DNA of 62,410 nucleotides, filler included, from Porpidia crustulata (Eukaryota): the NCBI GenBank assembly GCA_964255105.1. It is 4 parts of 4 records of this genome, joined end to end, with 100 filler letters (N's around TTAATTAATTAA, not from the genome) between each part and the next. Parts side by side here need not be neighbours in the genome. Positions count along the whole stretch, not along the records: positions 31,276 to 46,798 come from CAXUWE010000302.1; 3 more parts are not named here. The stretch is one strand, 5' to 3'. Each line of letters opens with the position of its first letter. Positions within the stretch are counted from its first letter, which is position 1. This document shows positions 4,613 through 61,698 of the stretch, one piece after another. The notes under the pieces were generated by a model. The model was not told the origin of the DNA. It saw nothing but the letters and a program-made list of their open reading frames with translations, and ran no database searches. Made by a program: the position numbers and the translations under genes.

Positions 4613-5028
4613 AATTGAGACCGCGCAATTCTACTCAAGCTCTTAAGCTATCATTATTTGGAGCGACATAATTCCACGGGTATGATGATCCTAGGAGTAA
4701 GACTCTATATGCATTTTGACCGGCTGTCCAATTAAATATGAAGCTAGAAGACGTGGTGAATATTCGTTATCGATAAGCCCCAAAATGCTTTTTCCCGGAC
4801 ATTTACACTCCACTCTTAATAGACCCAGTACATAGATAGAACGCCATACATCAGTGATACTGAAACGTACTGTCGAATGGCAAGATAGTAAGATATTCTC
4901 TGCATACATCTGAATGCTTAAACGTATCTGATATAAATCTCTGCCTACTAAACATTTTGACTGCCACCAATTTCTCTGTCTTTGTCAATCATATCTACCT
5001 TTTTAACAATCACATATGCCATTCAGCC

Positions 5029-24140: not shown

Positions 24141-24819
24141 GCTGAAGCGGCTCAGTCTTTGGCTTCTTTGATTCACCATACTATCAATTGAAAGTATTGT
24201 TGACGACACGAAAGAAGCCCCTGCAAGCCGTATCCAATTGGACGATACACCGCCTGATGCACAAAATAGAGAGTAAGAGATATCTTCTATGAATCTTCAA
24301 GCTCACCAAACCAGTCTTCGCCACCCTAAGAGGTAAATCCTATCATGTCAGGCGGCATCTGTCTTAATCGCCCTCAGCAAGGGAGGTTGAGTAAAGTCTA
24401 TTCAGTGAATCATGTGGAAGAGCGTCAGTAAGCTATCACATACTTCTCGTCGCTCAACCCTGTCACACATGCCCGGTGATATCAGGAAGATGTGATTGTA
24501 AGAATCGCCTTTATTCGCTTTTGTCTGGCGTGTACAAAATCTTAAATGGTAGTGAAGCCAAATTCAACAGTATGAATGAAGCCTGATATTCCCTCTGTAA
24601 CCCACATTCTTCTCACCATCATCTTTTGAATGCTTATGACTTCATGCTGGCTTGATACCAGCAGTATCTTGTTTTCTTAGAGATAATCGATTATTGGAAA
24701 CTGCGACGGAGGATAAGCTCATCAATTATTTTGCCTACGGCTAATCCCTTGCTCTTTCTGGCAAGTGGCTGTTTTGCTCCATCTGTGCTTGCCTAGGGAG
24801 TCGCAAGTCGCGGACGCCC

Positions 24820-27800
24820 TTGTGGCTTCATATCACCAACGCTGATGTTGATATAACCATCACTACTAGGTCACTCCTGGACGTCAATTCTATTGCTTCT
24901 GCTCCTGTAGCCATATCTGACATCATGTCAGTCTCGCTCTGCGGCAAGGCGCTCTTTTCGACGCAGCTTGGCCGATATCAACCTCGTGAGGCAGTTGAAC
25001 CTCGCGGTCCCATCGTCTTGAGAAGTGATCCAGAAGCTGACCTGGAGAGCATGATCGAGAGATTGGAGCGAGACTTTCTCCTTCAATGCAAGAATATTTC
25101 TCCGCCAATCATCATCTATGACTACTTTGATCACTACGACTGTCATGTTCTCGGAACCGGTTTCCTTCTCAAAGTGCTCGAAACCATAGCGTTCTGCAAC
25201 TACACCAGATCACATCATGTGAAGGAGCTCGTGAGCCGTTGGGAAGAGGGTAAACTTGTCAGGCTGGACAAAATGAAGGCTGCGCAGTCATTGCGTGATA
25301 TCTTTACAGTGACTGAAATGGAGGAGTATGGGGAAGACATTCTAAGTGAGGCTTTTACAACGATTGGAAACCTTATAAAGCTAGATTTGGATAGAGAAGG
25401 TAAAGTTGCATGCCCTTTCGTCTGATCCTTGAGTGCCTCACAGACATGTCCTTTAAGTCCCAAAACGTAGTTGGGTTTATGGCGAGTTGAGATACTCTCA
25501 GACTGCTCAATTGATCCTGTATAGACTCAGCATTTGTCTTTAATTGAAGTACGTACTGACCTTCTCAGCACTCACTGAGAAGCCTAGCTCACCAGGAATC
25601 TCCTCTCACGTTCAATTTCAGACAGAGGCCAATGATCACGAACCCGAACAAGGCCGTTCCGAATCACACATTTTAGCCAATGGCGTATCAGGGCAATTGC
25701 AATATAATTCTTCCGCTCCGCAATCAACACATATTGGCTATGCGATACCACGATCACCATGTATTCCTATACGACGCTCCAACTCTGCCTTAGATACACC
25801 GTCTAACGAGGCTTTCGAAAAAGTCATAGGTCTTTTGCCTCCTCAAGAACACTTTGCCGTAGAGCATGAAGCCCGCTACAGCGACCATCCGTTGAGCACA
25901 TTACAAGTGCCCGAGCAAGCATTCCACCAAAATGTTTCTACTCAGCCACCGCAGGCACTGAACATACGCAGTATAGAGGATCCACCGCCGCTAGGGGCGG
26001 GGGTATACCAAAAAGCCATCCGCACACCTGCCCACCAACCTCGACCAATCGTTGGCCCTTCGATCGCCAGTAATATGCCTTCTATGGGATTTTCTAACGA
26101 CGCTCGAAATCTGGTCGAGCAACCTATTGGCGCTAACACCGGCTCAGTACCATCGGTACCGCAAACCGTATTGATGGCGTACCAAGCCAATCAGCAAGGC
26201 CTTGGAACTCACTATCCCAGGGATATGGGTAGCTCACACACTAGTCTTGATTATGGCCAGAACGGACAAGCCTTCGGTGGCTTTTATCCGAGTTCATCAT
26301 CTAGCGGTGATTATCCAGTCAATTACGCAGGACGCCTTCCGAATGGATACCCCTCAATCACCCCTTTGGCGCCTTATAATGACCAGAGTCATCAGTTCAG
26401 ACGCTCCTCATTGGGCCAGCCGCGGTCAGCATACCCCCCGCCACCTACACCTACTGATCTCAGAGCCCTGCCTTTCTCTACGTCGTCTATGCAGTCTCCG
26501 ATGATCAATACTTACCAGCATCTCAGTGCTGGACAGCTACCGGGCCGAGCAGTCTGGTCTCGAGACGGTAATCCTGCGATGATACCAAATCTTGTAACGC
26601 CGATGAACTTTCCCAGACAACAAGGGCCTCGCCATGACGGCCAGCAACATAATGCATATCAATTACAAATGAATATGAGGTGTCTCGACGACACCAATCT
26701 ATATGTTGGAAGGCTTCCGAATTCTATCGAAGCGAAGACGCTACAGAGAATATTTGGACGTTGCGGCCCCATTGTAGAAGTCACTCAACCACGACCCCCA
26801 AATAACCCTTAACATCGCGGCGACTATAATTTCTACGCCTTTGTGAGGTCAGTTACTCCTGCAAGCCCTCCTTGACTTTACTGATCATACTGGACGGTAG
26901 ATATGCAAAGCCGAGTTCTGCTGTCGACGCCATCAGTACTTTCCATCAGAAGTCTCTCGAATTCCTAGGAGGTCCTAATCACTACTCGCTCATAGTTCAA
27001 CCCGCTCGAGAAAGTTATACCTATCCTGGAGGAGGGTCAATGCAGCTTTCCTCTAGATCTAGTGATTCTCCTAACAAGCGCCATTTCAAGAATGGGAGTA
27101 AATCTTACCGTGGAAATGTTAGACAGAGAGATGCTTTACCTCAGCAACATAGAGATCCACGCCGGGCATCTAGGGATATTCATCAGGAACATCCTACTGG
27201 AACCGCTCTTCTAGATCTTGAGTCCACCATAAACCTAATTAAAGAAGCGGCGCCCCAGCCAGAAGATCCGTCACAACGAGATCATGACCCTTCACAAGAC
27301 AGTCTCGGTCAACGTAAAGTGCCGGTCAAGCTTCCGCCTACTGAAAACGATGAGAATGCTGCGCAGAATAAGCAACGAACTGCCAGCTTTAAGGTCGGTC
27401 ACCAGGACATATCTACCTACGAAAACATTCCTCCACTCATGGAACGCCGATTGGATAATCTAGGATCCACTGGTCAAGTAAACCTTAGGGATGCTCGATT
27501 GGGCTCTGTTGATAGTAGAGGTGCTGGAAGTTCTAAGAATTTTACTGAGCCGAAGACCGAAAACAAGTCAGTTGCTCCCGGAAACACAGAAGAGGAAGAA
27601 TTAAAGTCTACTAACGACAGTATCATCACAGTGCGCCCAGAGCCTACCATAAATCAGTTGGATCAGACTTTTGGAATTACTGTGCAGGAGACAAGTGGAA
27701 TGAAGGACTCCGTGGTGGCTCAAACCGAAAAGCAGCTCCAAAAAACGGCGAAGCCCCACACCAAGGGCAAAGAACCTACCCCAGCTCAGCCACAGACTTT

Positions 27801-30800
27801 GCATGACAGCTATGCGTTGCCAATGCGTGACTCCAATAATTCTGCTTCGTCCTCATCAGCGGAGAAGTCTGAAAGATTGCACTCACCCAAGATCGAAGAG
27901 AAATTTGAACGATCTGGTGAAAATGTAAAGCTATCAATCATCAGTGCTGATAGAACTGACTCCAATGGATCCTCCGTGACCTTACAGGCTCTGTCGGAAG
28001 TAGGACCTCCTGATACTTTGATACCAGACACTGAGAAAGGAATCTCCACGAAGGCTAATGTCGAGCGGTTTGCTACCCTCACTGGTTCCGTGAGCGTGGA
28101 ACATGAGCCGGAAACAGTAACAGCAGACGAGCAAAACCGATTCGCCTGCCTAGCGATGTCTCGGGCTGACAGCAGCTCGACCAAAGCTAGCGATTTTGAT
28201 CGCCCTTCTCCAATTATACTCACTGAACCCACAACATATGCTCATTCAGAGCAGTCTGATAGTGGCGAGATCGGGAGCCAACTACCGATTGCAGTTCCAA
28301 CAGAGGAAACCTTATCATTGAAGCCATCTCAAAGTCTCTCTACCAGTAATAAGGACACTTCTCAACTGTACATTAGGACTGATCACTCTGCATTAGACTG
28401 CCTAGCTACGGTCGCAGAACAATTTGGGTACATTGAGAACGACACACAAAACCACCCTGCGCCGATACGAGCGACAAGTGTGACCAGCCCGCAGAATCCG
28501 CTCTGCGCAGATCAATCGCTGTCACGTAGTACCATTAGAAATCCTTCACACCAAGAAGCAAGCTCACCAACGAGTACGACGAGGGATCAGGGTCCGGTCA
28601 CGCGTGCTCGTGGATACCAAATTGCGACAGAGGCGATGTCCAAGGATAAGCCAAAGTTTATACCTCCAAAATCACCAACCCAACCATCTTTGGCGGCTCG
28701 AGATAGCATCACGTTGGGTGACTCAGTTGATACACTTAGAAAAATCCACGCGCCGAAGGCAGCTGAAGGGCTCAAGATTGACAGCCTAAGGAATAGGCCA
28801 GAAGTTCCGCCAAGATCGAGTTCGTTGGTCACTCCTGCAACGCCGATTTTAGCGCACATGCGAAAACGACGAAATCTCAAAGCTCCCAAGACTGTCGTAG
28901 ATATAGCCACAGAGAATCCTTATGCAGCTTTAAATCCTGAAATTTCGAACATTCAAGCAGAGATAAACATGGATCTGCCAGAAAGCAGCGCAGCGGATCC
29001 AGATCGCGTGAGGTTCTTAGAGCAATCCCAACATGGTAAAGCTGATGTCTTTGAGGCATCAAGAGGACAAGATACGACATATGCCAGCACCCACCTCGTG
29101 CTTGAAGCCTCGGAGCCGGATGATAAAGGAATCTCTTCCAAAGAGCAAAAGACAGAACAAGATGAAGCCACTTCAAATCAACCCGGTGCTGCCTCCTTAT
29201 CACTCAGTTCGACAAAGGATCGAAAAAAGAGGATGTCAAAGTCAAAGAAGAAGTTACTGGAGAAAGACCAATCGGATAAAGGTGATGTCATCGTATCATT
29301 TCCAGGGGAAGATAAGGCATCGATCAATTTTGATGTAATTTTACAAGCCTCGGACGTAGCAGAACTTCGAGAAGCTCCTAGTGTAGAAGAACGAGCAGAA
29401 AACCCCGAAAGTACTACACTTCGATCGGAGACTGCCTCTCCATTATTTGATCCGGCAAAGGCACGTAAGAAAAAGCCGCACAAATCAAAGAAAAAGCAAA
29501 AGCAAAAGCAAAAATCCAATGTCACCCAACTCTCCTCAATCTCGGAGTCTGAGGTATTGAAGCCAGCTTTGACATCACCACCATTAAAAGGTCGTTCTTC
29601 GCTGCCCGAACCAGAGACGCCGTTTATAGTCGACAGTATTTGCCTGGCAGAAAGCACTGATAGGTATGGCACCGTGGATATTTCGAAACCATCCGAACGA
29701 AATCGTGGAACAGTCAGTCAATTTTTCGCAGGTATGCAAGATTACAATCGACAAAACAAAGAAAACTACCTGCCTAAGCTATGTGTAGCCCCGCACTTCA
29801 TTGATACGAAAATGGGAAACCCACCATCCAAAAACTCTGGCGATGGTTTTCCTCCTAAAAAGACTACATTCAATGAACAGGGAGAAGTTCATGAAACCGA
29901 CCAGGACGTTGAAGATGCGGCCAGGAGGTGCGGCTATTTGGGATCTTGGGAACTGTCACATTCTGATCTTCGCTCTCGCGTACTCGGAAGTGTTGTAACC
30001 GTTGCTGAAGCCCTCGAGAAGTTTGGGAGTCCTACAAGTACTATGATCAGTAAAAATGACGAAGATTGTCCTACCAATTCTGAAGCTCCAGACAAGATCA
30101 ACGCGGGTGATGCGCAACACGCACCTGAAGATTCTCGAGCCGGTGGAGGTGAACACTCAAAATCAGAGGATGTCTTTGCCACTCAAGTAATGGAAGTCGA
30201 TGCAGTCGAACACAAAAAGCATAACCAGTCACGCACTTTTGCATCAGGAAACCAAAAGCCTTTCAATAGGCCGCCGAACGAAACTGCCATCGCCAGGCAA
30301 CTAACTCCAGAGGCCAAGAAAGTCTTTTCCGACTTGAAAGCCAAACCTCTGGGCCCCTCTGCTGCAGAACTCTCGAAATCAACCACGCTGATTGGTACGC
30401 AACACTCCACAACTCACATGATTTCGCCTGAGCAGATGGCCCAGCTCCAAAGCACCAACACCTCGGACCGTTACCAGGTTGCTGTAAATTATATTCTAGA
30501 GCACAATGAACGCCTCAAAACCCTAGTCAAAAGGGTGGAGGCGCTCAGCCCACCCGAGCGCCGCGAAGTCGCGATGCTGGAAGCGCAATTTGCAGGCAGA
30601 AGCCTACCTCTGAAGGGAATGAATGACTCTTCGACAAAGACAAAGTCGCTGTTCAAAGAGGACCTGGCCCAGATCGCCGAGGAGATGAGCAAGCTAAGTG
30701 ATGACTCCAGGAGGCTTGTGGTTGAGATGATTACGGAAGGAATTGGTGGTCCGGCTTCACCGTTCAAGCAGCGTTTACCCAATGTTGGACGGACGCGGGA

Positions 30801-31175
30801 GCTGCCGCCGTACACGGGAAATGGTCCACCACCCGCCCCACGTCCATCGCATAAGAAACTGCCATCATACTTGGAAGCCACCACGCGATCGCCAGAGCTA
30901 TTTCCATCCTCGCCTTCGCCCTCCATCCGCCACCTCCCGAGCCTGCAGCCTGGCGACACTGTCGAAGTCACTAGCGTCGAACACGGCCTGGACACCCTCA
31001 CCCTACAAATGCCCGAGCCCACGCCACCCCAACCGCGCTTCAGAAATCGATCAGGGGAGCGGGCACGCGACGATTCGAGGCAATTGTTCAGAGAAGAAGT
31101 GGCGGCGAGACGCCGCAGCCACACGGTTGAAGGGCAGGAGCGGCCGTTCATCGAGAAGAGGGAGAGGAAGTGGGT
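24820..31175 (+). CDS. Very large, mostly low-complexity protein with one RRM domain; in-frame TAA at 26810-26812; start uncertain and 3' end truncated
   Basis: ORFs 24820-25399, 25569-26847 and 26901-31175 join in frame via GT-AG introns 25400-25568 and 26848-26900. RNP2-like LYVGRL lies before the TAA and RNP1-like NFYAFVRY after it. Confidence 0.7.
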
Positions 31176-31275
31176 NNNNNNNNNNNNNNNNNNNNNNNNN
31201 NNNNNNNNNNNNNNNNNNNTTAATTAATTAANNNNNNNNNNNNNNNNNNNNNNNNNNNNNNNNNNNNNNNNNNNN
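31176..31275. other. Artificial contig spacer (N44-TTAATTAATTAA-N44)
   Basis: Identical 100-nt spacer. Confidence 0.99.
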
Positions 31276-32499
31276 CTTCTCTTCCTCTTCAGCAATGCTA
31301 TAGGAGATTAAGCCCTGCACCGTGATTAAAATCCGAACAAACCCCAAAAAATATCGGTATCAATGTACTAAACATGCACACGGATAAAATCCAACTCGCT
31401 ATCCATACCCCAGATATCTCAACCATGCCGGAAAATAAAAATTACGAAAAAGGGCACACGAAAGACGCTACATATGCGTGGGCCCTTCACCTCATGATAA
31501 TCCCAACGCGGTGTCGGAGGAGATTGGGACAAGTCAGTTATGCATGTGAATCCCCAAAACCAGAAAGTGTTGGAAAAAAACGCGATTTGTGATGGCTTCG
31601 CGCAGACATCATGGACGGAAACCCTAAGCTTTATCTCCGTCATTCTTGGGCGAAAAAGAAATAAAAAGTTGCCGACTTGATAATTAGACTTTCAAGGAGA
31701 TGTCTGTGGATTCAAGAGCGGTAGTAATTGGGCTTTTCTTTGGCTTGTGATTTTTTGCAAAAAAAAAAGGCTGTGTCGTGCAGCCGAAAGATTTTGAAGT
31801 TGGATTTATATAAATAATGCGAGTGCTTGAATCGGTCTCGAGTCAACCAAAAAAGAAGGGGGTATAATCCATTGGTTTTTGGAATAGTATATCCAAGGAT
31901 ACATGCTTTGCCCAAGCAATAACATCCCAACCAACCTACAAAACCCCCATCATGAAAACACACGCCTGATACCGAACGCCCCTATTTCCCAAACGTATTA
32001 TCTATCTACCATCTCCCACCTGCATGCAGCCATGAGGAAACAAAACACATATCCCCACCACAATAAAAGAAGAAAAAAAAGTTATTTGCCACACAATTGG
32101 CTTTAAAGGCCAAAGATCTAATACATATAAGCTACCGATCGGCGTTTTGCGGCGTCGGAATATAAGGGGGAAGAAGTCGGTGTATGGAGTGCGGAGATGA
32201 AGGGGAGAAAAATGGTGATTTGTGAATGTTGGGGATATCCTAAGGTTCCGATGGTCTGATGCGGTGGTTGATGGGATCGAGATGGCGAGGTGAGGTAGGC
32301 CGGGGGGTATAGGTGGGTTCGGATGTGTGAGGTTGAAATGTGAGGGGATTGGGAGGTGAGATTGAGGTGGTGAGTTACGACGCAGCCAGTTTGAGGTCGA
32401 CCTAGTATGTTTTTCAGGTCAAATGGAATAACAATATCGAGCAGTTGAAGCTCCCCATTCGATAAAGCCTCGGACCAGAGAAAAATTCGACCGATTCAA

Positions 32500-34998
32500 T
32501 CAAGGAACCCAGAAATCCGGGTATTCTTGCGACTGATGAGCTCCAGATGCACCGCTTGGGTCATTCTGGCCAATGGGAGGGAAATTGGCATTTTGCAGGT
32601 CAAAGCCAAATTGGTCGGAATCGTATCCAAGGTCGAAATTCTCCTGCGGAAAATCTGGAAAGAGTTCGGATGGAGCGGCGGGGGCGTTGTATAGAGTGCT
32701 TTGGCCTTGGCTTGGCGGAATGTTGGCGTGTTGTCCGTTGTAGCTGTAATCTGACAGCGGAGCTAAGGCTTCGCGCGCGGGAGCGTTTTCTTGGGGCTGT
32801 GGATACGTGGCGGGCATTTGGTTGTGCTGCTGCTCGCCGGGGTTGAAGGGATCAGTTGAAGCCGCTGGCAACAACTGGCTTATTTCTGGTGCAGGGTTGG
32901 CGTTCTCCGTGGACGAGTCTGCTACCCCGGCTTCGGCTTGACTTGACTGCTGCGCTTCCTCGGAAAAATCATGCGAGATTGACGGATCCTGAAGCGCTGG
33001 ATCCAGGACGGTGTTCAATATTCGCATGATCTTAGCATCGAACTCATCGCAAGTATTGTCAAGCGTCATTGTCCGTGGTTTCCAGGTAGATTGTGATGGC
33101 TGAGCTCCGACTGGCGTAGTCGCGGGATCTTGCTCGCCGTTTGGTTGAAGGGAAACCATATTTTCAGCTGGCAAGAACTGATCCACCAACGTCTCAGTAT
33201 CGACACTTCCTGGCTCTAGATTCGCGGCACCGGGATTGTTCAGGGTTGGTACTTGAGTTTGCTGAGTCGGACGACGCATCGTTGGCAGAGGATTTGGCAA
33301 AGGACTATTCAACATTGATTGGCGATCAAACCAAGCCTGTGGTTCCTCGTTAATTTCGCTCCTAGGAGGGCGTCGCAAGCCTGGAGTGGGTCTCGACGGA
33401 TAAGGCTGAGGACGTGATGTGGCTTGGGTATATGTTCTCCTTGCCGTCCGTGTCAAGCCTGTTGCTTCCTGCATACCTACTGGGATACGACGTTGATTAC
33501 CCATGGCTGACCCACTTGAAGTAGCCTGAGACAGCGCAGTAGCTTGTGTGCCATCTGGTATTTGCGAGCCGGAATATCCATGAGCCGGATGAGGTCTATA
33601 CCGTGGTAACTCATCTGGGTTGAACTGGATGTTTAACTCAGATTGACGGCTGGCATCCATTTCATGTCGTTCAGGATTCATCGTTACCCGTCTTTCATCA
33701 ACATCAGCCATCATTGCGCCATGTCTGGCTCGTCTCGATGGCTCAGCTCTCCGTGCTCCATCGGCCCTGAACCCTGAACGAGGTAGCTGACTTGCCCGGG
33801 TGTGCTGCATTGTAGAATTTCGGGTTCGCTGCCGCGTCCGGTAAACTGATTGACCGACGTCTTCATAGTCTGAAGCAAAGGCAGCTTCATCCACCCTTCG
33901 ACGCTTTCTGGGAGTCTCACTGGTCTGCTCTGATAAAGGGGTAGCGTTGCCATGGCGTAGGCGAGGATCGATACGTTGAGTGCTAAGATCCTCCACTTCT
34001 TCCTCTACCGAGTACTCCTCGTCGGTTTCAAACTCAACCACAGCTCTAGACCTCCTGGCCCTTTTACGCTTCACACCGGTCTCGGGCTTCGAGCCGCGGA
34101 CCGTGCCCTGACCGTTTGCAAAGCGTGGATGCTGAATCCGACCGCCTGAATCACCCATTCTGAAGTTTATGAGACCTGGCGTGGTCCCTCTTGTCGTATT
34201 TCTTGCGAACTGAGCTGGGCTCAATTTGCTAAGGACGAGCTGGCGAAGATCATTATCCTTCGACTCGTCTGTTGTCGGATGCCACGATATTATGCTATAT
34301 CGTGATCTCATCCTAGAACACTCCATGTTTAGAGCGTTTTGTCTCCGACGACCTTCCCGCGGCATCCTCATTAGAAAATCTTTCCACGTAACGCGTGGGT
34401 CGTTGCGGCGGATGGCCTCGTAGTACCACCATGGGTTCCGAGTTCCGATCTAACAGCGGTCAGATCAATTTATTCTACATAGTCAATGTATCTACTTACT
34501 CTGTCCGGAAGAATCTTGAAGTCTTTGAGAGCCTTTGGTTTCCTCGGGTCCAATGGATCTCTTTCCATGACCAGGTTGCCGTACGCATCTCGTTTGGGTG
34601 GCGGGGCGCCAGATTTTCGGAATTCCTCCCAACCGGGAGGAGGACGGAGGACGTAAAGGATCTGATGGGAGTATCAGCAACAATGTCAAATTTCCCGAAA
34701 TCGGAAAGGAGCTCGTACAGGTGGCAGATTATCGTCCGTCCAATCCGCTTGACTTTTCAAGGTTTAGTACAATATTAGCAAAATTTGGGACAATCATTAT
34801 CTTACCCTGGCATAAAATCGGTCACATCTTGTGGAGATGTACTTACTGGACGTGGCTGAGCTAGTATGATATTAGTCAAGAGCTTCTGAGAATGCTGGTT
34901 TCACCTCATATCTTACCGTATACAGAACGTCCACCTGGAAGCACAATGTCCCGGATGGCATCTCTGTATCCCAGTGTTTGGTCCCAAGGAATCGACAT
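32500..34998 (-). CDS. Uncharacterised protein, paralog A (760 aa, five exons): conserved N-terminal ~200-aa domain, Arg-rich basic patches and a Gln/Pro/acidic disordered tail
   Basis: Exons 34998-34917, 34860-34806, 34752-34719, 34661-34500 and 34449-32500 with canonical GT-AG introns give an uninterrupted frame: MSIPWDQ...FMPGQADWTDDNLPPILYVLRPPPGWEEF...DFKILPDRIGT...EAIRRNDPRVTWKDFLMRM...QNALNMECSRMRSRYSIISWH. Confidence 0.85.
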
Positions 34999-37900
34999 TT
35001 TGGGGAATGGTGTGACGTTCCGCTAGTGTTACAGACTCGAAGGGAAGTCCCAAGGCTTGAACAATGAGCCGAATCTTAGCTTGAATCGGTCCCAGTGTCT
35101 GAAGAAAATCCTATTTCTATCAAAGACAATGAGAATCCAAAGCTTAGAATCGGATATTGAAGACGGATTGGTGTTGCAGAACGAAGGAAGTCGACGCAAG
35201 CATTTCAGTACTTAAATAACTGTTCCCCAAAAGTACGACACTAGGTGAAGCTATTCACCCCAAGTTGTGTTGACATAAATTCGACACCGACACTGAGGTG
35301 TTTACGTGAACAATGGCGAGGTATGATCTCCTCGCTTGCGCGTATCAATGTCTTGTGTCGCTCTACGGTATTGTCGGTGCCGCTTCATGCAGGTTTTCAT
35401 CTGCAAGGCGGCAGATGTAGCAATCTCCGATGAGCCCCTGGATTCATGGCCGAGTTCCTGGATGCTTCCCTCAAAGAACCACCACGTTCAGTTTGCTTCC
35501 TATAATTACTTATCCGCTTGCGACTCGCTGCCGACCACGTTCTCGGTGAAGCGTTCGGAGTATGACATTGGGAACGATCTTGACTATACAGCTCGAAGTC
35601 GAGAAAATCGGTCTCTTGGTCGGCGAAGTGTATCAGGAATCCTAGACCTCGATTGGTACGACGATTATAGCCTCTTAACAGACAAGATCTAGAAGAACAC
35701 TGTGAGCAAAACCAGGGGCAAGACCTTGCCAGCTATATACTATATAAACTAGGTAAGAACTCCACTTAGGGTTGATGAAATGAAAGTAAGGAAGTATACG
35801 AAGTCGGTCCAGACAAAATCGTTGTAGAGGCATCCATTGCTGCTGATAATGATTTCACTATCTTCACCCGTCGTTCTAGGGACTGTAACTCGGAACGACA
35901 TTCTCTGCTTCGAACTCTTGTTCGATGAATTCCGCAATTTGGACGTTCCATACATATATATAAATAAGAGGGGAAAAGAACCTTCAGCGTATCTAAGCTG
36001 AATACTGGAGGACGTCAATATCCGTTGTAAGAAGTGCGGATGAGATAAGCGTCTCATGCCTTGCACGTGTGAAGGTTCCCGATGCAGTCTACGTCTCCAG
36101 TCAATATGGGCTCTGAATAAAGCCAAATCAGACAGTTGATGATGATTGCAATGCAACAAGTAATTGCCTGTTTCTGCATCGGAGAAGGAGCGGGCAAGCT
36201 CGCTGATCTAACGGTCGAGATCAACTGACACACGACTGCTGTAGGATTATAGAGATTGCTGTCCCAAAATTAGGATTCAAAATTACAAACGACGTAGATC
36301 AACCTCTCCGATTTCACTTCGGGCAAATATCAAGATCGCGATCCTCAAGGTAGGGCTCGTGTCTCCAGCCTCTTCGTTCCAGGTGAAGTATTTATCAAAT
36401 GCTCGGATTCACAACTTGAATGAGAAGTCGTAGAACAAACATGAGTCTCTTAATCTAAAAGGTGGAAAACTTGGAGACCCAGGTCACAGACCAGCAAAGC
36501 CGATGCATGATCTATACACTTTTCATCTCCACAACTTGAGTTGCGAGCTTGCTTCTTTGTTAGCGTGCTCTCTTGGCGGTCATACTGCTGTGATCCATTT
36601 TTGTACTCGTACAATCAATAATCGAGCGTACAATTCCCCAGTCATCAAGACTTGAAAGTTGTGTTCGAGTTCGAATCTCCCCAAGGAATCCAAGGGATTT
36701 GACAGGTGTTGATGTCGCGTCTTCTGGCTCGAGAACTCAGTAGAGCCAGATTACTAACGTTATCATTCGCTTGTCCTATGAATGTGAGGCCCTTTGTAAA
36801 TGTCCACCTTCCAAACAGAAGACTCGTTGCGACAACGAAGCCCTAGCCCCTCGGCGATTATCAAGCGGTTAACGCGGCAATTCGCCACACGAGCGGCGTC
36901 GAGAAAATGTTTGATCAGACCTCATGTTTTCGATCAAATCTCTTGCTCATCGACGGTGGCCGATGACTCTATGGTTCCGATACCAGTGCAAAATCTCTGC
37001 AATTCCCGACGGCGAAGTCATGTGCTCGGATTACAATCAGCGTGAGGACAGCGAGCCCACGTTGCGTCGCGAAAGCGGTACGAAGGTGTTGGTGGACACT
37101 TCGTATTTGTCCATGGCCGAGAGATGTGTTTGGAGATTTCGATCGCATTTCAATTCTTTAGACTCACTTCTAGGTATCTAGCTTCCGTATTCTAGAGCAC
37201 GAAGAATCGCAAGGACTGGGAAGCGGATTGAATATTATACCATTGGGCTCCTGTGACCCAGCGACATGGAGACAATGTGGCTATGCAAGCATGGAATAGG
37301 CGAGTGTATCAGTAGGATATTAGGTATCCATCTGTGTCTTGGAGCCCTTGCGGTCTGAGCTGGGTGCAGGCCACGTGCCCGACCACCATAGGCTGCGTCA
37401 TTCTTCCTTTTGCTGTGCATCCGCTTCTAGGCTGAGGTATTTTGTTGGAGACTCTCGTGTACCAATTTTGGCGGGATCTCACCGAATGGAGTCTTGATTT
37501 GTATTGATTCGGTGTCTTTTGCCATGACTTCTTGTTCTCTTTTCTCGTCACAATATACTGTGGCTGTCGGAGTGACTCCCATCGTTATACTCTTACTTCT
37601 TTTTGGGACACACGAAGAATGCAATGTCTAAGAATCTTGCGGGCAGCATCTGCGGATGATAGCAAAAGTTGATGTATACTTGGCCGCGTTACGCTGATGA
37701 CATGTAAAGTTAACCTCCATAAGTCTGACACTAATACTGGATGTTCGAATGTATATCGAAATGATGAAGGTTGCCGCTTTTCGGATTTTGAGAAATCCAG
37801 CTCCGAATGGACTATTTCAATCACATCGAGAAGACCGAAATCGGAAGTGTTTGCGGTAATACTTACGATCTCTATAGCTAGATGTGGGTTACCCTGGGAT

Positions 37901-38974
37901 ATTGCAGTTGCGATTTAGGACGACCGGAAGCAGAATTTAGGTAACGAAGTATTTACTCCGGAAAAAGCCGACTTTATTCAGCTAAATTGACAACGCGCCG
38001 CAGTCGTTCTCCCGTGGGAAGGTAAGAGGTTCTTTTTCGCTGATTGTGGTAAGAAGCGCTACTCTCTGTGCCAGAATGCTGTGCATAAAGTATCCAAAGC
38101 GATACCTCAAGCTTGGAACGGTGCGGTTTTGGCTGATCGTCAAATCCATGTAAAGGTCCTTACTTATCTATTGATGACACTCTCAAGGACTTTCCCATGT
38201 TTCTCGAAAGAAAATCCGCGCAAAGCTAGATACCCATTTTGGAGTACCCCTCGGCTCACCACGAATGTGGCCGATAATCTTGAGCCGCTAGGAGACATTA
38301 TGCGGGCAATTGTCATCTTTGCGACATAATTCTGAAGCATTTGTATCGCTGCTCGTTTGAAGTCTTTCATGAGGATATGCTTGCATGAGAATTTGGTTGC
38401 CGGATTAAATTTAGCAAAGCGCTTATGAGGAAAGCCATTGAGGAGAGAAGTCCTCATCGAGAAGAGGACATACAATTTAGTGCCGACCGATTGGGTGGGG
38501 TGTCCAACGAAATGAGGAAAATATTGACGACTGAGATTGATGATCGACGTTGATGATGTGAAAAGCTGCTATGGTGTAGCCATTACAGCTATCAAGAAGG
38601 TGTAAATATTAAGATTCAGAAGGAAGAAGCTGGGTGGATGAGTCCGGTCCTTTTATGGTTGAGGTGCTCTTATCAATGGTTATGTGCTCCTCACCCTGTG
38701 AATGATAAGTCGTTGACCCTATTGTACATGAAGAATAAGGAATGAAGCCATAATCAATGTTGAATGGTCTGGAAAAAGTGAAATCTTTTCAATAAGCTGT
38801 GAAGATACATCCCCTCTTAATCTTGAGGGATATCTGGGATAGAAGAATATGAAAGCGGCAATATGGAAAGATGAGCTTGTGAAGCGATTCCCCTCTTAAA
38901 TAAAGAGGCGGTGAAGTTGGATTTCACTCCAATATGAAGTCCGTCTGCTTCGCACCTAGGATGTCTCGGTGATT

Positions 38975-40332
38975 TCAGTCCGTTGCTCCGTTTGTTCTAT
39001 AACCCATGAATACATCGTTGCGCAGAATGGTATTCGTACGGACTGGCTTCCATGAGTGATAATCTGGTTGGCCCGCTAAACCATTCTCATTGCGAGCTTC
39101 AATTCCTGGGGATTGCGGGTAGGATGAAGGCATGAGATAGTAGCACTTTGGGGTCGGATGAGGTTCTGGTATAGGGCACTCAAACTCATGAGATACATGG
39201 TCCACGGCTAGCTCGGCTCTTTTGTACGCAATACTGCGGCGGACTTTCTTGTTAAGTCCTTCCTGATGCCAATACTCCATAGCCTCATATGATTGTTCCG
39301 AGCGTCTTCGCTTGTGTGTCAAGCTTTGAGGAGTCGGGGGATGAGGATCGCCATTTGAGAAGGGACCAATTACTGGAGTCGGAGGATTATTTTTGTATAA
39401 GTCGCCTTCCGTGGGATATTGAGTCCTGAGTGTTGTGGCGAAATGTTCTTCGTGGTCAGAAATTTCTGGTACGATGCCTTCAGCCGCCTCCAGGTCTTGT
39501 GCTGGCCATCCAGACGTCAGACTTCCTGTCGTATTGGCGATTATTTGCTCATTGGTGAGCCCAGCAAGAACCTTGACTTGGTTCCTAGTGCTTCCAGGGT
39601 GCTTCGATTTTATGTGCCAAGATAACATGCCGAATTCGCGCCGCATACGAATCACTCGCATATTCAGGCTATTTTGGGTTGGGCGCGGAGGGTGCATGCG
39701 CATGATTATATCGCACCATCTGATGCGCGGGTCCCATCGTCGCCACTGTTCAAGCATGACAGCTGACTCCTCAGTTCCGATCTATATCCTGAAGATCAGT
39801 CTGTTTCACCAAGAGCATTTGGAAATCTTACAATGCTCGGAAGTATTGCAAAATCGTGCATTTGCCTCGGAGGTTTCCCAGGATCAGGCCAAGATTCTTT
39901 GACGACGTTATTATAACCGTCTCTCATCAATGTTTTCGGGCATCTGGAAAACTCGTGCCATCCATCTGGTGGGCTTAATACAGACATGAGCTATTAAGTG
40001 TAAGTTGCAGCTTGATAGAAGGGTGGTTGGACCAGATTACCTCCGTGAGATTGCTTTCACTCCAGTCCGCCTGACTACTCCATTGTCAACACCTAGCCTT
40101 TGTGATCACCGAGGATGACTTGACGATCTTACCCAGGGTGGAAAGATATCACGTCTGACGGGCAATGTCCGACATTTCGCGCCACAACTGCCAATGTATC
40201 ACTGAGTGAGCTGCGCAGCGCCTGAGTTCATCTACTCATACCATATTGGGTTGGATCACCATGGCACCATGACTTTCTTGCCATCGCCACATAGCGTGTG
40301 CGTCGATCCCATGGAATCTTAAATCTCTTCAT
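38975..40332 (-). CDS. Uncharacterised protein, paralog B (381 aa, five exons), homologous to 32500-34998
   Basis: Exons 40332-40242, 40187-40133, 40074-40041, 39990-39832 and 39781-38975 give MKRFKIPWDR...FHPGQADWSESNLTELMSVLSPPDGWHEF...DFAILPSIIGT...EQWRRWDPRIRWCDIIMRM...QNSLNMRVIRMRREFGMLSWH. Intron phases are the same as in paralog A. Confidence 0.85.
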
Positions 40333-41677
40333 TTTTTACAATATTGAATAGGAACAAATCGCAACGACCAGTGCTTGCGAGATAATCTGCTACCGAGACA
40401 CCCGCGAGCAATCTGAGTCTGAATGCCTTGTGAATTGGTGCAGATCAGGAAGCTAACAGGCCTGGATCCAAATAGAAGAATGGGAATCTCCAAATCAGTC
40501 GCTAAGATTTGACGCGACCAGTACGACTAGCTCTGGAACAAGGGATCTGAATGTTGGTTTGCAACAAAAAGGTTTTCTTGTTGGATCTACATGATCGAAA
40601 GCAGTAGCTTGACACGATGACAGGAGTCCAAGATGAGCATGAAGGTCCGTGAAAATGCTGAGTTGCGAACTATCTCGGCTTATGCGTTTGAACTGCTCGA
40701 CACATTTATACCACGCTTAACCGAAACGGGAGTTGACGATATCACTTTTTTTTCTCTGGGGGCACGGAGTTCAGGCCCTACTATCCGCCGAGATTGCGTC
40801 GTCCAAGAGCTAGATGGAAAGTTAGGGAGATTTTGGGTTGGCTTAAAGTGTGTAGTGATATCTAATTGCGAATACTTATTGGCGCTGGTCGCGGTAATAG
40901 GGCAATAACGGGATTCAAAGATTGTGCTTGAGAATATCTTTGTTCTCGGCAAATTTCGGTGTCGATTCAGTGTCTAAGCCCTTAGTATCACTACTAACGA
41001 AGCCAGTATTAGTCGTGATAAATCCCCAAAGAGGCTCTTATTTTACTGTCTAAATAGCTATCTGCAGCCTCCCTACGGCATCGGAACAAAGTCTTCTGGC
41101 AGCCTGCTTATTATACCTTTGTTGAATGCATCAACAAGCAAGAGCTCCCAGTGTTGGCCGCTCCACGATAGCTAGCAGTTCCAGAAGACTCTAGAGATAT
41201 CAAACATCGACTAGACCAACGAAGTCTCGCTCTTTGTTGCAAAGAGCCCCTTTACAGCTTCTGAAAGCCACATTCGGGAGGGGATCTTTTATTACTGGAA
41301 ATATCCCTAGTCAAGAAGACTTTTAGAGAAGTTATGTAAATTGCAAATGGAAGGAGCTGTATCCATTTGAATCCACACGACCAAGTATGGAAGCAAAGAC
41401 CCACATACAGCAAAGAAGAAGGCTATATCTTTGCAAAACAAACTCGTATGTCAGCAGTCTACCAGAAGCCCTGTAGGGAGTCCAAAACATTAACATCATT
41501 GGACTCAAAGCCAAGCTCCCAGAAACTAAGAATCCAGCTTTTTAAAAAGCAGCAACGGGCCAACTCCCATCCAACCCATACCTCCCTTAAACGAAGATTG
41601 CAACTCAGAACGCCGCTTCCTATATGTTCGTCGTATTCTTTATCAATCTAAGAAACCACCACCACGACCTCTTACGA

Positions 41678-41719
41678 AAGATCTCCCACCCAAGATCTTC
41701 CACCCAAGATCTCCCACAC
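41678..41719 (+). repeat. 14-bp minisatellite, three copies (AAGATCTYCCACMC)
   Basis: aagatctcccaccc / aagatcttccaccc / aagatctcccacac. Confidence 0.85.
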
Positions 41720-55410: not shown

Positions 55411-56437
55411 CAATGTATCCAATGTACAGAGCTCAGCGCCGTTAGAGATCGCTGACAGCATTGCTCAGTGACTTTATCTCGCCTTGAGCTTTGTTTTCTA
55501 GATCTCCGAATGATGATATTGGCTCCCTCATGATGCGGCGTTGAATTTCAGCTTTCGCGCCTGCCATGTATGTTTCGCAAATCAGCTTCCTATGTTTGCT
55601 AAGATTTGCACTAAATCTCACGAAATACCAAGTCAGTAGTCGGTGCCACATTTGTGGATACCTTCAGCTATTTCGAATCTACTTTCTCATACCATTGTCA
55701 TAGCTCTGCGAGAGTGAATGCCAAATTATAACAGCCTCCAGCGCCTACTTCCATTCCTAACCAACGGAAGTCGCGATGCTCTTACCACTTTCTGTTAGGA
55801 AGGCTCATCTGGCTGAGAATATCACCTCCACAGTACTTTTTCATTTGCCCAGTCCTAATGATCAGGTGGAAGTCGAAATTCAGAAGCTTTACTTAGCAGA
55901 ATGACGGATGAGCTGTAAATAAGGTAGGTCTATTGTCAATCCCATACCTTATGCGAATGACTATACTCGTGAATACCAACTCTGAGCTTTAAAGAACCCT
56001 ACTTTTAACCGTAGTCTATTGTCCCAGCGACTTTAGCCTAGGTTGTGTTGAATAGAAGAAACCTCTGCTAGCCTTGTCAAGTGAATGTCAAAGTATAACC
56101 ATACAGGATTCTTGTCGGTCTCTCTTCCTTGGACTCCCTTAGGCGGCGGAGTTTGTCACTACCACTCTCTTTTACCAATAAACATACTTACAGGTATTTT
56201 CCAGTCCCGAATGAATAGGAAAGTATCGTATTGATATCCGCGAACCATTACTGTCACTTTTTTCGCGCTCACTTGTCTTGGAGCACCGCTCTTTGCGCTA
56301 TCTTAAGGTAGTTGCGCAACCCTTTTTCAACCGCGGCAAAGGTGAGCAGTTGCATATCAGACGATCACAATTGAGCTATCATTGACATCCCTTCAGGCCA
56401 ACTCACTCCCTATCTCTGGTTTACGTTTGCTGCGAAC

Positions 56438-59400
56438 ATGACGAGCATCAGAGCAGGTTCCCTGCCGAACTCATCGCTTCAGGAGCTACCAGCATCAGAA
56501 CTGTGCTCCGACTATCTTGCTGGATTTTGCCGTCGAGGGGATAAATGTCTTAAGGTGCATGAAATCTGTGCAGTCTCAATAGCAGGCTATCAACCTGTAC
56601 CGCCATTATATGGTCCCACAAATTTCCTCTCCCAGAGCCCTCGTCGTTCGCAGTCGGTAAAGTGTGCGTTTGATAACGAAGGTCCAGGAGAACTGTCTAG
56701 TAATGGTGCAAGACATGACAATGACCATGTCGATATCTGCGACATACGGATCTTACCCACAATGGACGAGATTCTCTGCAACCGACCACCCTACATGCCA
56801 CAAAAAGATGATCATACACTGCATCGCTATGTACTTGGCCAACGACGCTTGATGGATGTCAACTTTAGACAACTCAGATACGACAGCACAAAAGTAATCA
56901 TCGACACCTGTGAGCATGCCTGCCAGCTCTTACTGGCATCCGTATTGCAATCTCGGTTCCCAAATCCTGGTATTCCAGTACAGACACCGCAAGGATTCCA
57001 ATACTATTTTTATAGTGACATCAATTTCGAGAATGCCAGATTTCACGAGAACCAGGGTATACATCTTCGTATCAGCTTCTCATGCCCTCAGGAATTGCGA
57101 AGTAGGCGCATACTTTCCTCCGGACGCCTAGAGCAAGGGATGCTAGTGGCGTTGATTGGATATGATCAACAGTTAAAGGAGGTATCAACAACGTTCATGA
57201 ACGTGGATCTTTGCCAGAGCACCGATGCTATGAAGTCGATAACGGGTGATCATTCGCGAGGTTTGCAGTTTCTCACCTTCTCGTATACTGGACTCTAACT
57301 TTGGAAAGCTTCCGTTCTTCTGTCTTTCGCAGATCAAGATGATATTGAAGCCATCAGAAGACTTCTCTACAAAATTAGTGGATTAATTCCGGAAACCTTT
57401 GTACTCGTTGAATTTCCAGGGATATTGCTGGCAGGATTCTCACCCACCTTAAAGCAACTTCAAAACCTTTCTCGTGAAGACGAGAAAATTGCTTTTATCT
57501 CGTCCATTGCACCTACCGTCGAAGGACATAGCCCGGCCGTGGCACCCCCAAGGTACGCCGCCTCGGACGATTTTGAATTTCGACTGGATGTACTCCATGC
57601 GAAAGATCAGACTAAATCCACGTCAGGGCTTAGCCTGAAGCCAAACAACTTCCTATCCAATCAAGAGCAGCAAGAAGCCTTCATCGAGACCCTCGGCCAA
57701 AGCACGACTCTAGATCATGGTCAGTCCACTGCTCTCTGTGAGAGTCTATGCCGCGGTCTCGCATTCACACAAGGTCCACCGGGTACCGGTAAAACATATC
57801 TCGGGGTTTCTCTAGCCAAGGTCATACTAGCGTCTCGCCAGGAGTCCCCCAAGCCCATCCTCTGTGTGACCCAGACAAATCATGCACTCGATGGGTACCT
57901 CCATGACCTTCTGAGCGACGGTGTAACCAAAATAGCTCGATTGGGACGAGGAAGTAAGGAGAACTGGACTACCCCATATCAGCTGCGTGAGCTGTGCCGT
58001 AAAATGAAAATTACGAGCATCGAGCGCTCCAAGCTAAATCAAAGCTACCTACAAGTCGAGTGTCTTGCGAAGGAAGGTACTAGCTTTTGTGAATCGATGA
58101 ACGACCAAGGCATGAGCTGGCTTGCAATTCGGGGGCACTTGCAGGGAAATTATCACTCCATATTTGAACAATTTGCGATCCTCGAAGCGGTCGATGAGCA
58201 GCGTTTATCTGATATACGATTAGCACGCAAAGCTGGAGGCTTCGCTTTTGAGTACTGGAGCCGAGGTGGCGATCTGAATGATGTCGAGCAACTTTTAATA
58301 TGTTTTGATACGATGCTTGGTGAAAGCGACGTAACTGGCAATCATAATAGTGTGAAGACGAGGGAGCGAGTACTCGCCACTATAGCCAACAATATGGAGC
58401 ATGCAAAGGTCAACCTTGACAAAGTTTCTGGCCAGAAGCTTTGGAGTTTATCTTTAGAAAATCGGCGGCTCCTTCTACAGAAGTGGGGAGCTGAAATCTG
58501 TCCCTGGAAAATTGCAGATCAAACGGCGGAAATTCATCGACGACATCGAGCCGCTATTATCAGAAGAAAGCTAATTCAACAGGAGATTGACGCGAGGTGT
58601 TTGGGACAACAGGATGTGATTGGTATGACCACCACTGCTTGTGCGAGGGACTGGTCCATGTTAAGACAGCTTGGCTTGGAGGTGGTGATAAGCGAAGAGG
58701 CAGGTGAAGTAATGGAGGCACACACATTATGCACATTGTTTCCGACGGTAACGCATGCGATATATATTGGAGACCCTCTTCAACTGAGGCCCCAAATCAG
58801 TCAGCCATCCTTATCACTCGAAACCCCTGCGGGTGCTCTTTATCGACTGGACCAGTCGCTTTTTGAGAGGATGATGTTCCCGTTATCTCCAGGAGTTATC
58901 CCTCTTCAAAAAAAAAAACATAANNNNNNNNNNCATCACAACTTAATCTTCAACGACGAATGCATCCAGAAATTGCAGATATAATGAGAGCTACTCTGTA
59001 TCCGAACCTTCAAGACCACGAGTCGACGCACCAGCATCTTCCTGTTGCTGGTCTGAGAGATCGAGTGTGGTGGCTCAACCATCAAGAGCTTGAAGATCGA
59101 CCTGACCACCGCTCGATGATGTCGAAATCATATTCAAATGCATATGAAGTTGAGATGATCGCCGGACTTGTACAATATCTCGTGAATAGTAACGAGTACG
59201 ACTTTGGCGATATCGCAGTATTGACACCATACAATGGGCAGCTTGCAGCGTTGAATAGCCGGCTGAGCATGACATGCTCAATTCTTCTAGGAGAGAAGGA
59301 CAGGGAAAGCCTACTAAGTTTAGGACGTCTAGAAGAGGGCGAGAGCCAGCGAGGATTCAAAACAGATGTGGCCATAACTACTACGCTTCGTCTAGCTTCT

Positions 59401-61698
59401 ATCGACTCTTTCCAGGGTGAAGAAGCTAAGATTGTCATCCTTAGCACGGTGCGAAGCAATGCGGAGGATCGGGTCGGCTTCTTGAAGACCACAAACCGGA
59501 TCAACGTTGGGTGTAGCCGCGCTCGTGATGGATTCTACATTATTGGGAACGCATCACTTATGAAAGGTGTCGAGATGTGGGAGTCCATTGTGGAATTATT
59601 AACTCGAAAACACAAGATCGGGCCAAGCTTTCAAACTTGTTGCTCTAGACATGCTGGGCGAACTTATGAAATCCGCAATCCTGAAGACTTTCAGACTATT
59701 CCAAGCTGTCAGGTTCTCTGTGGCTCAGAACTTCCGTGTGGACACCCATGTAAGGAGATGTGCCATGGTCCTTCACTTCATACTCGAATAATCTGCTCCG
59801 AGCCTTGCCATAGATACCTTGAACCCTGTGGGCATCAATGCACCAAGTCCTGTGGCGAAGCTTGTGGGGAGTGTTTACAAGAGCTTGACCTGACGATACT
59901 TCGTTGTGGCCATCAATACTCGGTGACCTGTTGCGAGGTTCAAACGCCAAGACAGTTGATAGGTAGAAATATTTGCAAAGCGATTGTTGGGACCGTCATA
60001 CTACCTTGTGGTCACCAGCAGGATCAGCTCTGCTCGACCAGCGATGTCCCACTAGTATGCAAAGAACGCTGCGGGAGATTGCTCGAATGTGGTCACCGCT
60101 GCTTCGGGCTTTGCTCGGATTGTAAGGAGAACGCAAGCCATCCCGCGTGCGTTGAGTTGTGCGATAAGAATCAAGATTGCGGCCACCATTGTACTGCGCC
60201 TTGCCACGGAGGGAAATGTCCGCCCTGCCTACTTCCATGTCAGCGATCATGCATTCACGGCAAATGTTCGCAAGTGTGCAGCAAGGTTTGTGACCCATGT
60301 GTTAAAACCTGCAGCTCAAGCTGCAAACACCAAGAAGTCTCTACTACATTATGTTGCTTAACTTATGCTCAGAATCCTTGCAACGAGCCATGCAGCCGCC
60401 TTCTACAATGTGGTCATTTATGCCCAAGCCTCTGTGGAGAACGTTGTGCAACCGTCTGCGGCCAGTGCAAGGATGGCAATTTCCCTGCCCAATCGCAAAT
60501 CTCTCTCTCCTGTGGACATAGCTTTGATGTGAAGAGACTTGATCATCACGTTGGCCTCGAGAAGGTCTTCAAGACTACAGATACGGGTACGATTCGTCGT
60601 CCACGATCCGGTATAACATTGGGAGACAAAATGCTCCCTAGTTGCCCAGAATGTAACATGCAATGCCACGATGTCCGGAGATATGCTCTGCTTACCCACG
60701 TTCAGGCCATTCAAGCGAACATTGACCGACTTTTCAAGAAACTAGGACGGAAAATGTGCCAATTCATGGGTCACATTAATGACGCTAAGGAGGAACTTCA
60801 ATCTGACTTTACTGAATTTCAGAAGCGACTCAAAGCAGGACCATTGGCAGGGAAGAGAAACGAACACCTTGTCCGAATACGTGGGAGCGCGCTGAACGAC
60901 ATCCAGCTGCAGCTCACTGGGTTCAGAGGTAAATACTAAGCAGCTCTCTTGAATGTTCCTATATACTAATAACTTGCAGATGACATTGTAGTTCGAGTCG
61001 AAGATGAAATTTGCAACTTGGCAATGTTTCTCAACGATGCCCAGATCGTGCCTACGTACAACATGTCCTTCAAAATACGATTTGATTCACTTTATTATCG
61101 TTGCCGGCTGATCATACTCGAGGAAGCAGTCAAGATGGCTGCTGTGACCCAAGCATTGGCGGACACATCGCAGCACATGTTTGCTCTCAACGAAGGTCTT
61201 CGTACATTGACGTTGGCAGAGGCCCAGGCGCATATGACAGCTATGCAAACGATCATCGATCAATGCCAAGTAAAGGGACTTAGGCGCCTCGAGGTCGAAC
61301 TACGTCTGTTACAGGCCTCATTTCACCAAGTAGTAAATTCGCTGTCGTCCGCTAGTCATGAAAATGTCAAAGCCAGTATAGAGAAGACTTTGAATCTGTG
61401 CACAAAGTTTCCAAAATCCGCCGGGGTTCTGATGAACACCTGCAAGTCTGCAATGCTTGGATTGAAAGGCCGGCAAAGCCCAACCAACCTTTACGCCAAG
61501 GAGACACGACTGTTTTGGAAGAAATGGAGGGATCACGAACTCGGACATCTGAAATGTTGCCCGCTCGGTCATCCATACTCGAGCGCGACCTTTTCGGATT
61601 GTCCCGAATGCGGTCCAGAAGTGGCACAGATTGATTACAATAGCTTTTTGCACGAGGATGCTTTTGTCAAGAGATTGCTCGAGATGAACAAGCGTTGA
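56438..61698 (+). CDS. ZNFX1-like (NFX1-type zinc finger) Upf1-family SF1 RNA helicase with an N-terminal CCCH finger; frame interrupted at 58908-58933
   Basis: CCCH finger CSDYLAGFCRRGDKCLKVH; Walker A QGPPGTGKT; TNHALD; Walker B SEEAGE; IGDPLQLRP; SLFERM; QRRMHPEI; IDSFQGEEAKIVILS; RINVGCSRAR; tandem CGHxC NF-X1 fingers; C-terminal CPLGHPY...CPECG. Introns 57261-57308 and 60929-60979. Confidence 0.92.
58924..58933. other. Scaffold gap (10 N) inside the helicase gene
   Basis: N10 preceded by A11-CATAA. Confidence 0.95.

Follow-up and report, generated by a model that had tools for sequence, protein, structure and literature searches.

A tandem pair of paralogues in Porpidia crustulata and the undescribed leotiomycete protein family to which they belong

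The question raised by this locus is what kind of protein two neighbouring genes encode when no described family accounts for either. The locus lies in a stretch of 62,410 nt from the ascomycete Porpidia crustulata (assembly GCA_964255105.1), and the whole of that stretch is referred to here as the window. On its minus strand are two genes, A and B, which an initial annotation had presented as a tandem pair from an unrecognised family and, more speculatively, as transcription regulators. Comparison with relatives establishes A and B as two intact paralogues predicted to be spliced and places them in an undescribed protein family of leotiomycete ascomycetes. Several readings of their function are weighed below, among which a regulatory role is tentatively preferred.

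Two spliced paralogues of an undescribed family

Each gene is modelled with five exons, the introns hiding the 5' half from view as an open reading frame (ORF). The exon models confirm the same-strand pair, 3,976 bp apart, and yield spliced proteins of 760 amino acids for A and 381 for B. All eight introns are 50-58 nt long and bounded by GT..AG, and the spliced models reproduce the internal exon lengths first proposed (55/34/162 nt in A, 55/34/159 nt in B) together with the intron phases 1,2,0,0 in both genes. By BLASTP the two proteins share 80 identities over 206 positions (39%, E 1e-37, A 1-203 against B 4-204), and every motif that the initial annotation had listed for the shared N-terminal block is present in the alignment. 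Its claim of complete divergence after the block also stands, since BLASTP returned only chance-level segments (E at least 0.38) beyond residue 204. A third family copy in the window was not found by tblastn, and a word-based homologue search with exon 5 of B recovered the window's own ORF alone.

The models agree closely with what is seen in relatives. Annotated proteins from Trapelia (P0012), Xylographa (P0050) and cf. Caloplaca (P0054), among others, align without gaps to spliced A and B at all four junctions, and the annotated homologues start at the same N-terminal P-W-D/E motif. An A orthologue on a metagenome contig has its four GT..AG introns at the same places; these introns have diverged far more than the exons, in which the sole indel is 18 nt long and in frame. 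A spliced-alignment script written for this work, which returns the models of A and B exactly, was then applied to 14 related copies. In eight, all four introns fall at homologous sites and have phases 1,2,0,0 (one offset by one residue in the alignment), and two, forming an orthologous pair, keep introns 1-3 with exon 4 fused to exon 5; the remaining four gave low-scoring partial models or poor alignments and were left uninterpreted. Since the introns are conserved and homologue alignments span the junctions, the gene models are supported. A measure of selection points the same way: over the exon-5 part of the domain, six orthologue pairs give a proportion of nonsynonymous differences (pN) of 0.14-0.34 against a proportion of synonymous differences (pS) of 0.63-0.80, ratios that are rough with synonymous sites saturated. 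On these values the domain is under purifying selection, and the constraint is clear.

Two side observations concern gene structure elsewhere in the family. The pair that lost intron 4 lies at L002:10936-11577 and L008:~4100-4664, with introns 1-3 retained. P0002, a database protein whose domain is 87% identical to that of A, begins inside exon 4 and reads through intron 4; unspliced calls of this kind make most database members look N-terminally truncated.

To delimit the family, the first 104 residues of A exon 5 were used as a phmmer query against 1.84 billion representative proteins. The search returned 266 clusters at E<=1e-3, 67 at E<=1e-10 and 2 at E<=1e-30, many of the matches being fragments called without splicing. 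The whole domain is present in 18 of 172 proteins and, in a later scan, in 21 of 178, A and B included. With phmmer, residues 1-215 of A match 12 homologues end to end (E 1e-60 to 3e-21), and the match of the family hidden Markov model (HMM) to A and B runs from residues 1-4 to 250-259. The common layout is a basic globular domain of about 220-260 amino acids that begins right at the N-terminus; the disordered tail behind it evolves fast. Near-invariant positions of the domain comprise the Arg pair in the EAxRRxDPR helix, R-x-R on helix 3, a Trp after helix 3, and NTTRGxTPG. All are present in A; in B the Arg pair, R-x-R and the Trp remain, with NTTGSLTSG replacing NTTRGxTPG. Members occur in Lecanoromycetes (Trapelia, Xylographa, Stereocaulon, Psora, Dirinaria, Heterodermia and many Teloschistaceae), in Candelariomycetes (Candelaria, Candelina) and in Eurotiomycetes (four Aspergillus species). 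Since Aspergillus species have members, the family is not confined to lichens. Judged by its closest relatives, the fungus that carries A and B is probably itself a lecanoromycete.

The initial annotation had not recognised the domain, and database searches bear this out. Pfam gave no family for the window pieces, nor for homologues searched in sets of 25 (E<=0.01), 16 (E<=1) and 95 (E<=10). A profile search of PDB sequences found no match to the domain; its 21 rows at E<=10 all fall at profile positions >=199, in the low-complexity tail, and were rejected. The ESM Atlas held no usable match for P0028 1-225 or P0113 30-205, and no paper was found naming six family-member accessions. In their source databases all members are called 'hypothetical' or 'uncharacterized', save one 'Clr5 domain-containing protein'. 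Neither the family nor its domain, intron structure or arrays appear to have been described in the resources searched, the proteins themselves being already public as hypothetical.

Tandem arrays and the age of the duplication

Family copies are often found side by side. A metagenome scan with a 10-row alignment gave 44 loci, on which copies were placed by domain searches of six-frame translations. Six same-strand copies lie within 21.5 kb of JAABUT010000034.1, an array that recurs in six sister assemblies, and three lie within 11 kb of JAABUO010000074.1; several other contigs carry same-strand pairs. Among annotated genomes, neighbouring locus tags are seen in Dirinaria (003579/003580), Loekoesia (002469/002470) and Polycauliona (006650/006651).

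When 46 domain segments are placed in a maximum-likelihood tree, the two genes of the window separate. A groups with P0002, L002_8001 and L008_429/P0003 (support 100/98), and B with L002_1249 and L025_8001 (support 100/83). The six-gene array opens with L002_1249, followed by L002_8001, so that their order matches that of B and then A. Of the two neighbours in Dirinaria, one pairs with one member of the three-copy array and the other with another. Since A and B fall in separate clades whose orthologues are adjacent in a relative, the duplications predate these species splits. The suggestion that the tandem duplication is old is therefore upheld by adjacent A and B orthologues in the same order in a relative's array, and a lineage-expanded family, also proposed at the outset, is borne out as well.

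One pair, at L039, adjoins a glycosyltransferase gene of family GT8 that shares 71% identity with its counterpart in the window and matches it in relative orientation. At the DNA level no conservation with related loci was seen outside the domain-coding part, intergenic DNA included. As side observations, an aldo/keto-reductase ORF (L039:2029-2682) sits between GT8 and the first family copy and is absent from the window's corresponding 2.6-kb spacer, and the six-copy and three-copy arrays are each bounded downstream by an Abhydrolase_3 gene on the opposite strand (L024:11283-11813, L029:13504-14007). The shared Abhydrolase_3 neighbour suggests that these two arrays are syntenic. Neither of these flanking genes of relatives, the aldo/keto-reductase and Abhydrolase_3, is in the window. 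In the A orthologue, the exon-5 frame (L002:7770-8726) closes after a tail of 131 amino acids and is overlapped by an ORF of 405 amino acids in another frame (L002:8573-9787); an extra intron or a frameshift in the tail is possible.

The N-terminal domain and its candidate functions

The fold of the domain was approached through two structural proxies, one homologue's domain and the exon-5 segment of A (120 residues, 122 sequences). AlphaFold2 (AF2) modelled the former with a predicted local distance difference test score (pLDDT) of 91.6 and a predicted template modelling score (pTM) of 0.87, and the latter with a pLDDT of 83.9 and a pTM of 0.69. In the segment, helices are predicted at positions 7-16, 22-28, 37-50, 67-75 and 78-82, with a small hairpin beyond them around NTTRG...GGR. 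Foldseek found no structural neighbour for the whole-domain model, either in PDB (best E 1.7) or in the viral BFVD (best E 2.4, template modelling score (TM) <= 0.15), and nothing for the A segment (best E 2.1). As modelled, then, the domain is confidently predicted and has no sequence or structural relative in Pfam or PDB. A VIA search with A residues 2-60 returned, among the 50 best rows, about 30 that are helix-turn-helix (HTH) or winged-helix regulators by title. The DNA-binding domains of these classes, including AsnC/Lrp, TetR, OmpR/PhoB, LysR, the BirA N-terminal domain and the Pol III winged helix, are among the closest known systems. With Myb/SANT and homeodomain proteins, the comparison drawn in the initial annotation, the family has in common three helices and conserved Trp and Arg positions, but it has no Pfam Myb or homeodomain match; neither class is among the 17 Foldseek rows or the 50 VIA rows listed, an absence that excludes nothing.

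The reading tentatively favoured, with a probability of roughly 0.4, is that these are modular regulators of transcription or chromatin, nuclear and equipped with a new kind of binding domain. The proteins of the A/B family would be located in the nucleus, where the N-terminal domain may bind nucleic acid or chromatin through a winged-helix-like core of three helices with invariant Arg and Asn residues. The conserved NTTRGxTPG...GGR hairpin could join the core in binding. The tail would supply patches for nuclear import and, in many members, an acidic-aromatic motif at the C-terminus that may recruit partners.

Several properties fit this arrangement. Of the 21 full-length members, 20 have a domain with a pI of 8.4-10.2 and a net charge of +2 to +18. 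Tails run from 79 to 705 residues in the copies examined, about 60-75% of tail residues are disorder-prone, and basic clusters are present in 75 of 129 tails; those reported for A (KRKRARR, RKRRR) and B (HKRRR) were located at the residues listed in Table 1. An acidic motif built on Trp and Phe is present within the final 30 residues in 28 of 112 members, as compared with 20 of 1049 interior windows (Fisher p 5e-18). Ends of this acidic-hydrophobic kind are similar to activation motifs. A carries two F-D-L elements and P-D-F-W in its final 45 residues, none of which is found at the C-terminus of B. Judged from sequence, the domain charge, the basic patches and the acidic-aromatic C-termini are consistent, only that, with transcription-regulator function. 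In architecture the family is like the modular fungal activators, having a basic N-terminal domain, basic clusters, a disordered linker and often an acidic-aromatic end; the difference is that its predicted binding domain matches no known fungal DNA-binding family.

A number of points weigh against a regulatory role. Basic patches are missing from 54 of the 129 tails. The acidic-aromatic pattern was defined after the sequences had been seen, is present in a quarter of members only, and is unmatched in the last 30 residues of both A and B. Helices 2 and 3 are joined by a loop whose length differs from member to member, unlike that of a canonical HTH, and the choice of the invariant Arg and Asn as putative binding residues presumes that they are exposed on the surface of the model. 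The domain of B has a net charge of +1, lower than in any of the other 20 full-length members (+2 to +18), and the splicing of both genes is itself predicted from comparison.

Other explanations must also be weighed. That the pair is an artefact of gene prediction, two pseudogenes or transposon-derived DNA might be entertained because the DNA around A and B holds no other recognisable gene, but this is largely refuted and very improbable: intron positions, GT..AG sites and in-frame indels are kept across species, pN is below pS, the AF2 fold is modelled with confidence, the genes are not flanked by any repeat structure, GC content is an ordinary 0.46-0.52, and the 23 flanking ORF pieces of related arrays contain no transposon-type domain, whether transposase or reverse transcriptase. 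Quite different is the idea that the three-helix part is a divergent Clr5-type domain, which would recruit histone deacetylases or other chromatin factors in silencing instead of reading DNA sequence. In passages of PMC5003357 that refer to Hansen et al. 2011, Clr5 is presented as a factor in the silencing of heterochromatin in fission yeast. UniRef gives the name 'Clr5 domain-containing protein' to P0113 of Aspergillus wentii, and a basic domain with a disordered tail would be compatible with such an adaptor; like the family, the Clr5 domain (PF14420) is a small helical N-terminal domain, specific to ascomycetes, with a long disordered remainder. The family domain is about four times longer than the Clr5 domain. 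Against this idea, the Pfam model matches no member tested: PF14420 gave no row for P0113 and 15 other members at E<=1, for 95 members at E<=10, or for five isolated three-helix fragments at E<=10, with the limit that HMMER filters drop most matches above E of about 0.1, so that a very weak resemblance may escape. Regular-expression screens of six-frame ORFs at the related loci for Clr5-like proteins gave nothing usable. Membership of the Clr5 family is not found at the level of sequence; a distant relationship is conceivable, and the adaptor idea as a whole appears improbable. In the same searches, PqqD and MerR_2 rows for one Aspergillus three-helix fragment (E 0.17 each) were sub-threshold and taken as noise. 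Somewhat unlikely, though better placed than Clr5, is a domain that binds proteins or ligands and plays no part in the nucleus, as in a scaffold with short linear motifs in its disordered tails; the likeness to winged helices would then reflect no more than a common helical arrangement. The basic domain in 20 of 21 members, the basic clusters and the acidic-aromatic ends fit nuclear regulators but do not decide the matter.

Turning to B, it is doubtful, though conceivable, that this gene is a decaying or neofunctionalised copy and no equivalent second regulator. Its terminal branch in the tree measures 0.76 as against 0.20-0.21 for its two orthologues, and its pN to them is 0.32-0.34 as against 0.20 between those orthologues. 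Besides the NTTGSLTSG replacement and the reduced charge, it is without the Trp pair with which the first helix of exon 5 begins. By these comparisons B is the faster-diverging copy and has lost near-invariant residues and the positive charge of the domain. However, its frame is open across 381 codons with four canonical introns, its pN stays well below pS, and its orthologues are retained in two other assemblies. B is read as relaxed or neofunctionalised, not yet dead.

Should the domain bind DNA or chromatin, it would be a new class of binding domain for fungal regulators and its members candidates for lichen-specific regulation; should it bind neither, it would still be a conserved fungal domain of unknown function deserving a family entry. 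A broader version, in which the N-terminal domain is a new nucleic-acid-binding fold of leotiomycete-specific regulators kept in ancient arrays of up to six genes in lichen-forming fungi, is rather unlikely. On that version the paralogues would combine a common binding scaffold with freely diverging effector tails and could form a toolkit for lineage-specific programmes of development or symbiosis. Lichen-forming fungi are hard to work with genetically, and most of their lineage-specific genes are unnamed. Within this setting the family is well delimited and offers a confidently modelled domain, conserved introns, purifying selection and ancient arrays, and its Aspergillus members make testing by knockout possible.

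Coordinates and surroundings of the pair

Features of both genes are collected in Table 1. The DNA around them had been called unusually gene-poor, which is moderately true: 11.7 kb between the long ORFs at 31227 and 42927 hold two genes.

Table 1. Features of genes A and B; positions count along the whole 62,410-nt stretch (NLS, nuclear localisation signal)
Feature	Position	Strand	Remarks
Gene A exon 1	34917..34998	-	82 nt, ATG at 34998; N-terminus aligns with N-termini of annotated homologues
Gene A exon 2	34806..34860	-	55 nt; GT..AG flanks and intron position kept in relatives
Gene A exon 3	34719..34752	-	34 nt; from comparison with related copies
Gene A exon 4	34500..34661	-	162 nt; in-frame 18-nt insertion in orthologue
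Gene A exon 5	32500..34449	-	1950 nt including stop; second half of domain and disordered tail of ~540 aa
Gene A DNA for conserved N-terminal domain (residues 1-221, introns included)	34120..34998	-	from alignments
Gene A basic patch KRKRARR (residues 238-244)	34051..34071	-	NLS-like; putative NLS role
Gene A basic patch RKRRR (residues 292-296)	33895..33909	-	NLS-like; putative NLS role
Gene A acidic-aromatic C-terminal stretch (residues 716-760)	32503..32637	-	partly kept in P0002
Gene B exon 1	40242..40332	-	91 nt, ATG at 40332
Gene B exon 2	40133..40187	-	55 nt
Gene B exon 3	40041..40074	-	34 nt
Gene B exon 4	39832..39990	-	159 nt
Gene B exon 5	38975..39781	-	807 nt including stop; divergent second half of domain and tail of ~160 aa
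Gene B basic patch HKRRR (residues 269-273)	39302..39316	-	
B-A spacer, 3,976 bp	34999..38974	.	no recognisable gene; no DNA conservation with related loci

The window as a whole is ascomycete nuclear DNA, with long ORFs for TRM1, Med17, phosphofructokinase, POP1, a fasciclin protein, the GT8 glycosyltransferase and a protein kinase. Three consecutive long ORFs of 226, 422 and 1465 amino acids on the plus strand (24745-31227) converge on gene A and are probably one gene of more than 2,100 amino acids; none of them matched Pfam at E<=0.001. A 66-nt palindrome with overlapping arms that are 94% complementary (31163-31288) falls exactly where the long ORF 26830-31227 ends. Between gene B and GT8, a direct repeat with a 14-nt period consists of three copies of a 28-nt unit overlapping by half (41662-41717). 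Farther along the plus strand, at 56375-60939, a multi-ORF gene with zf-CCCH/ZNFX1, AAA_11 and AAA_12 domains encodes a helicase of the ZNFX1/NFX1 type.

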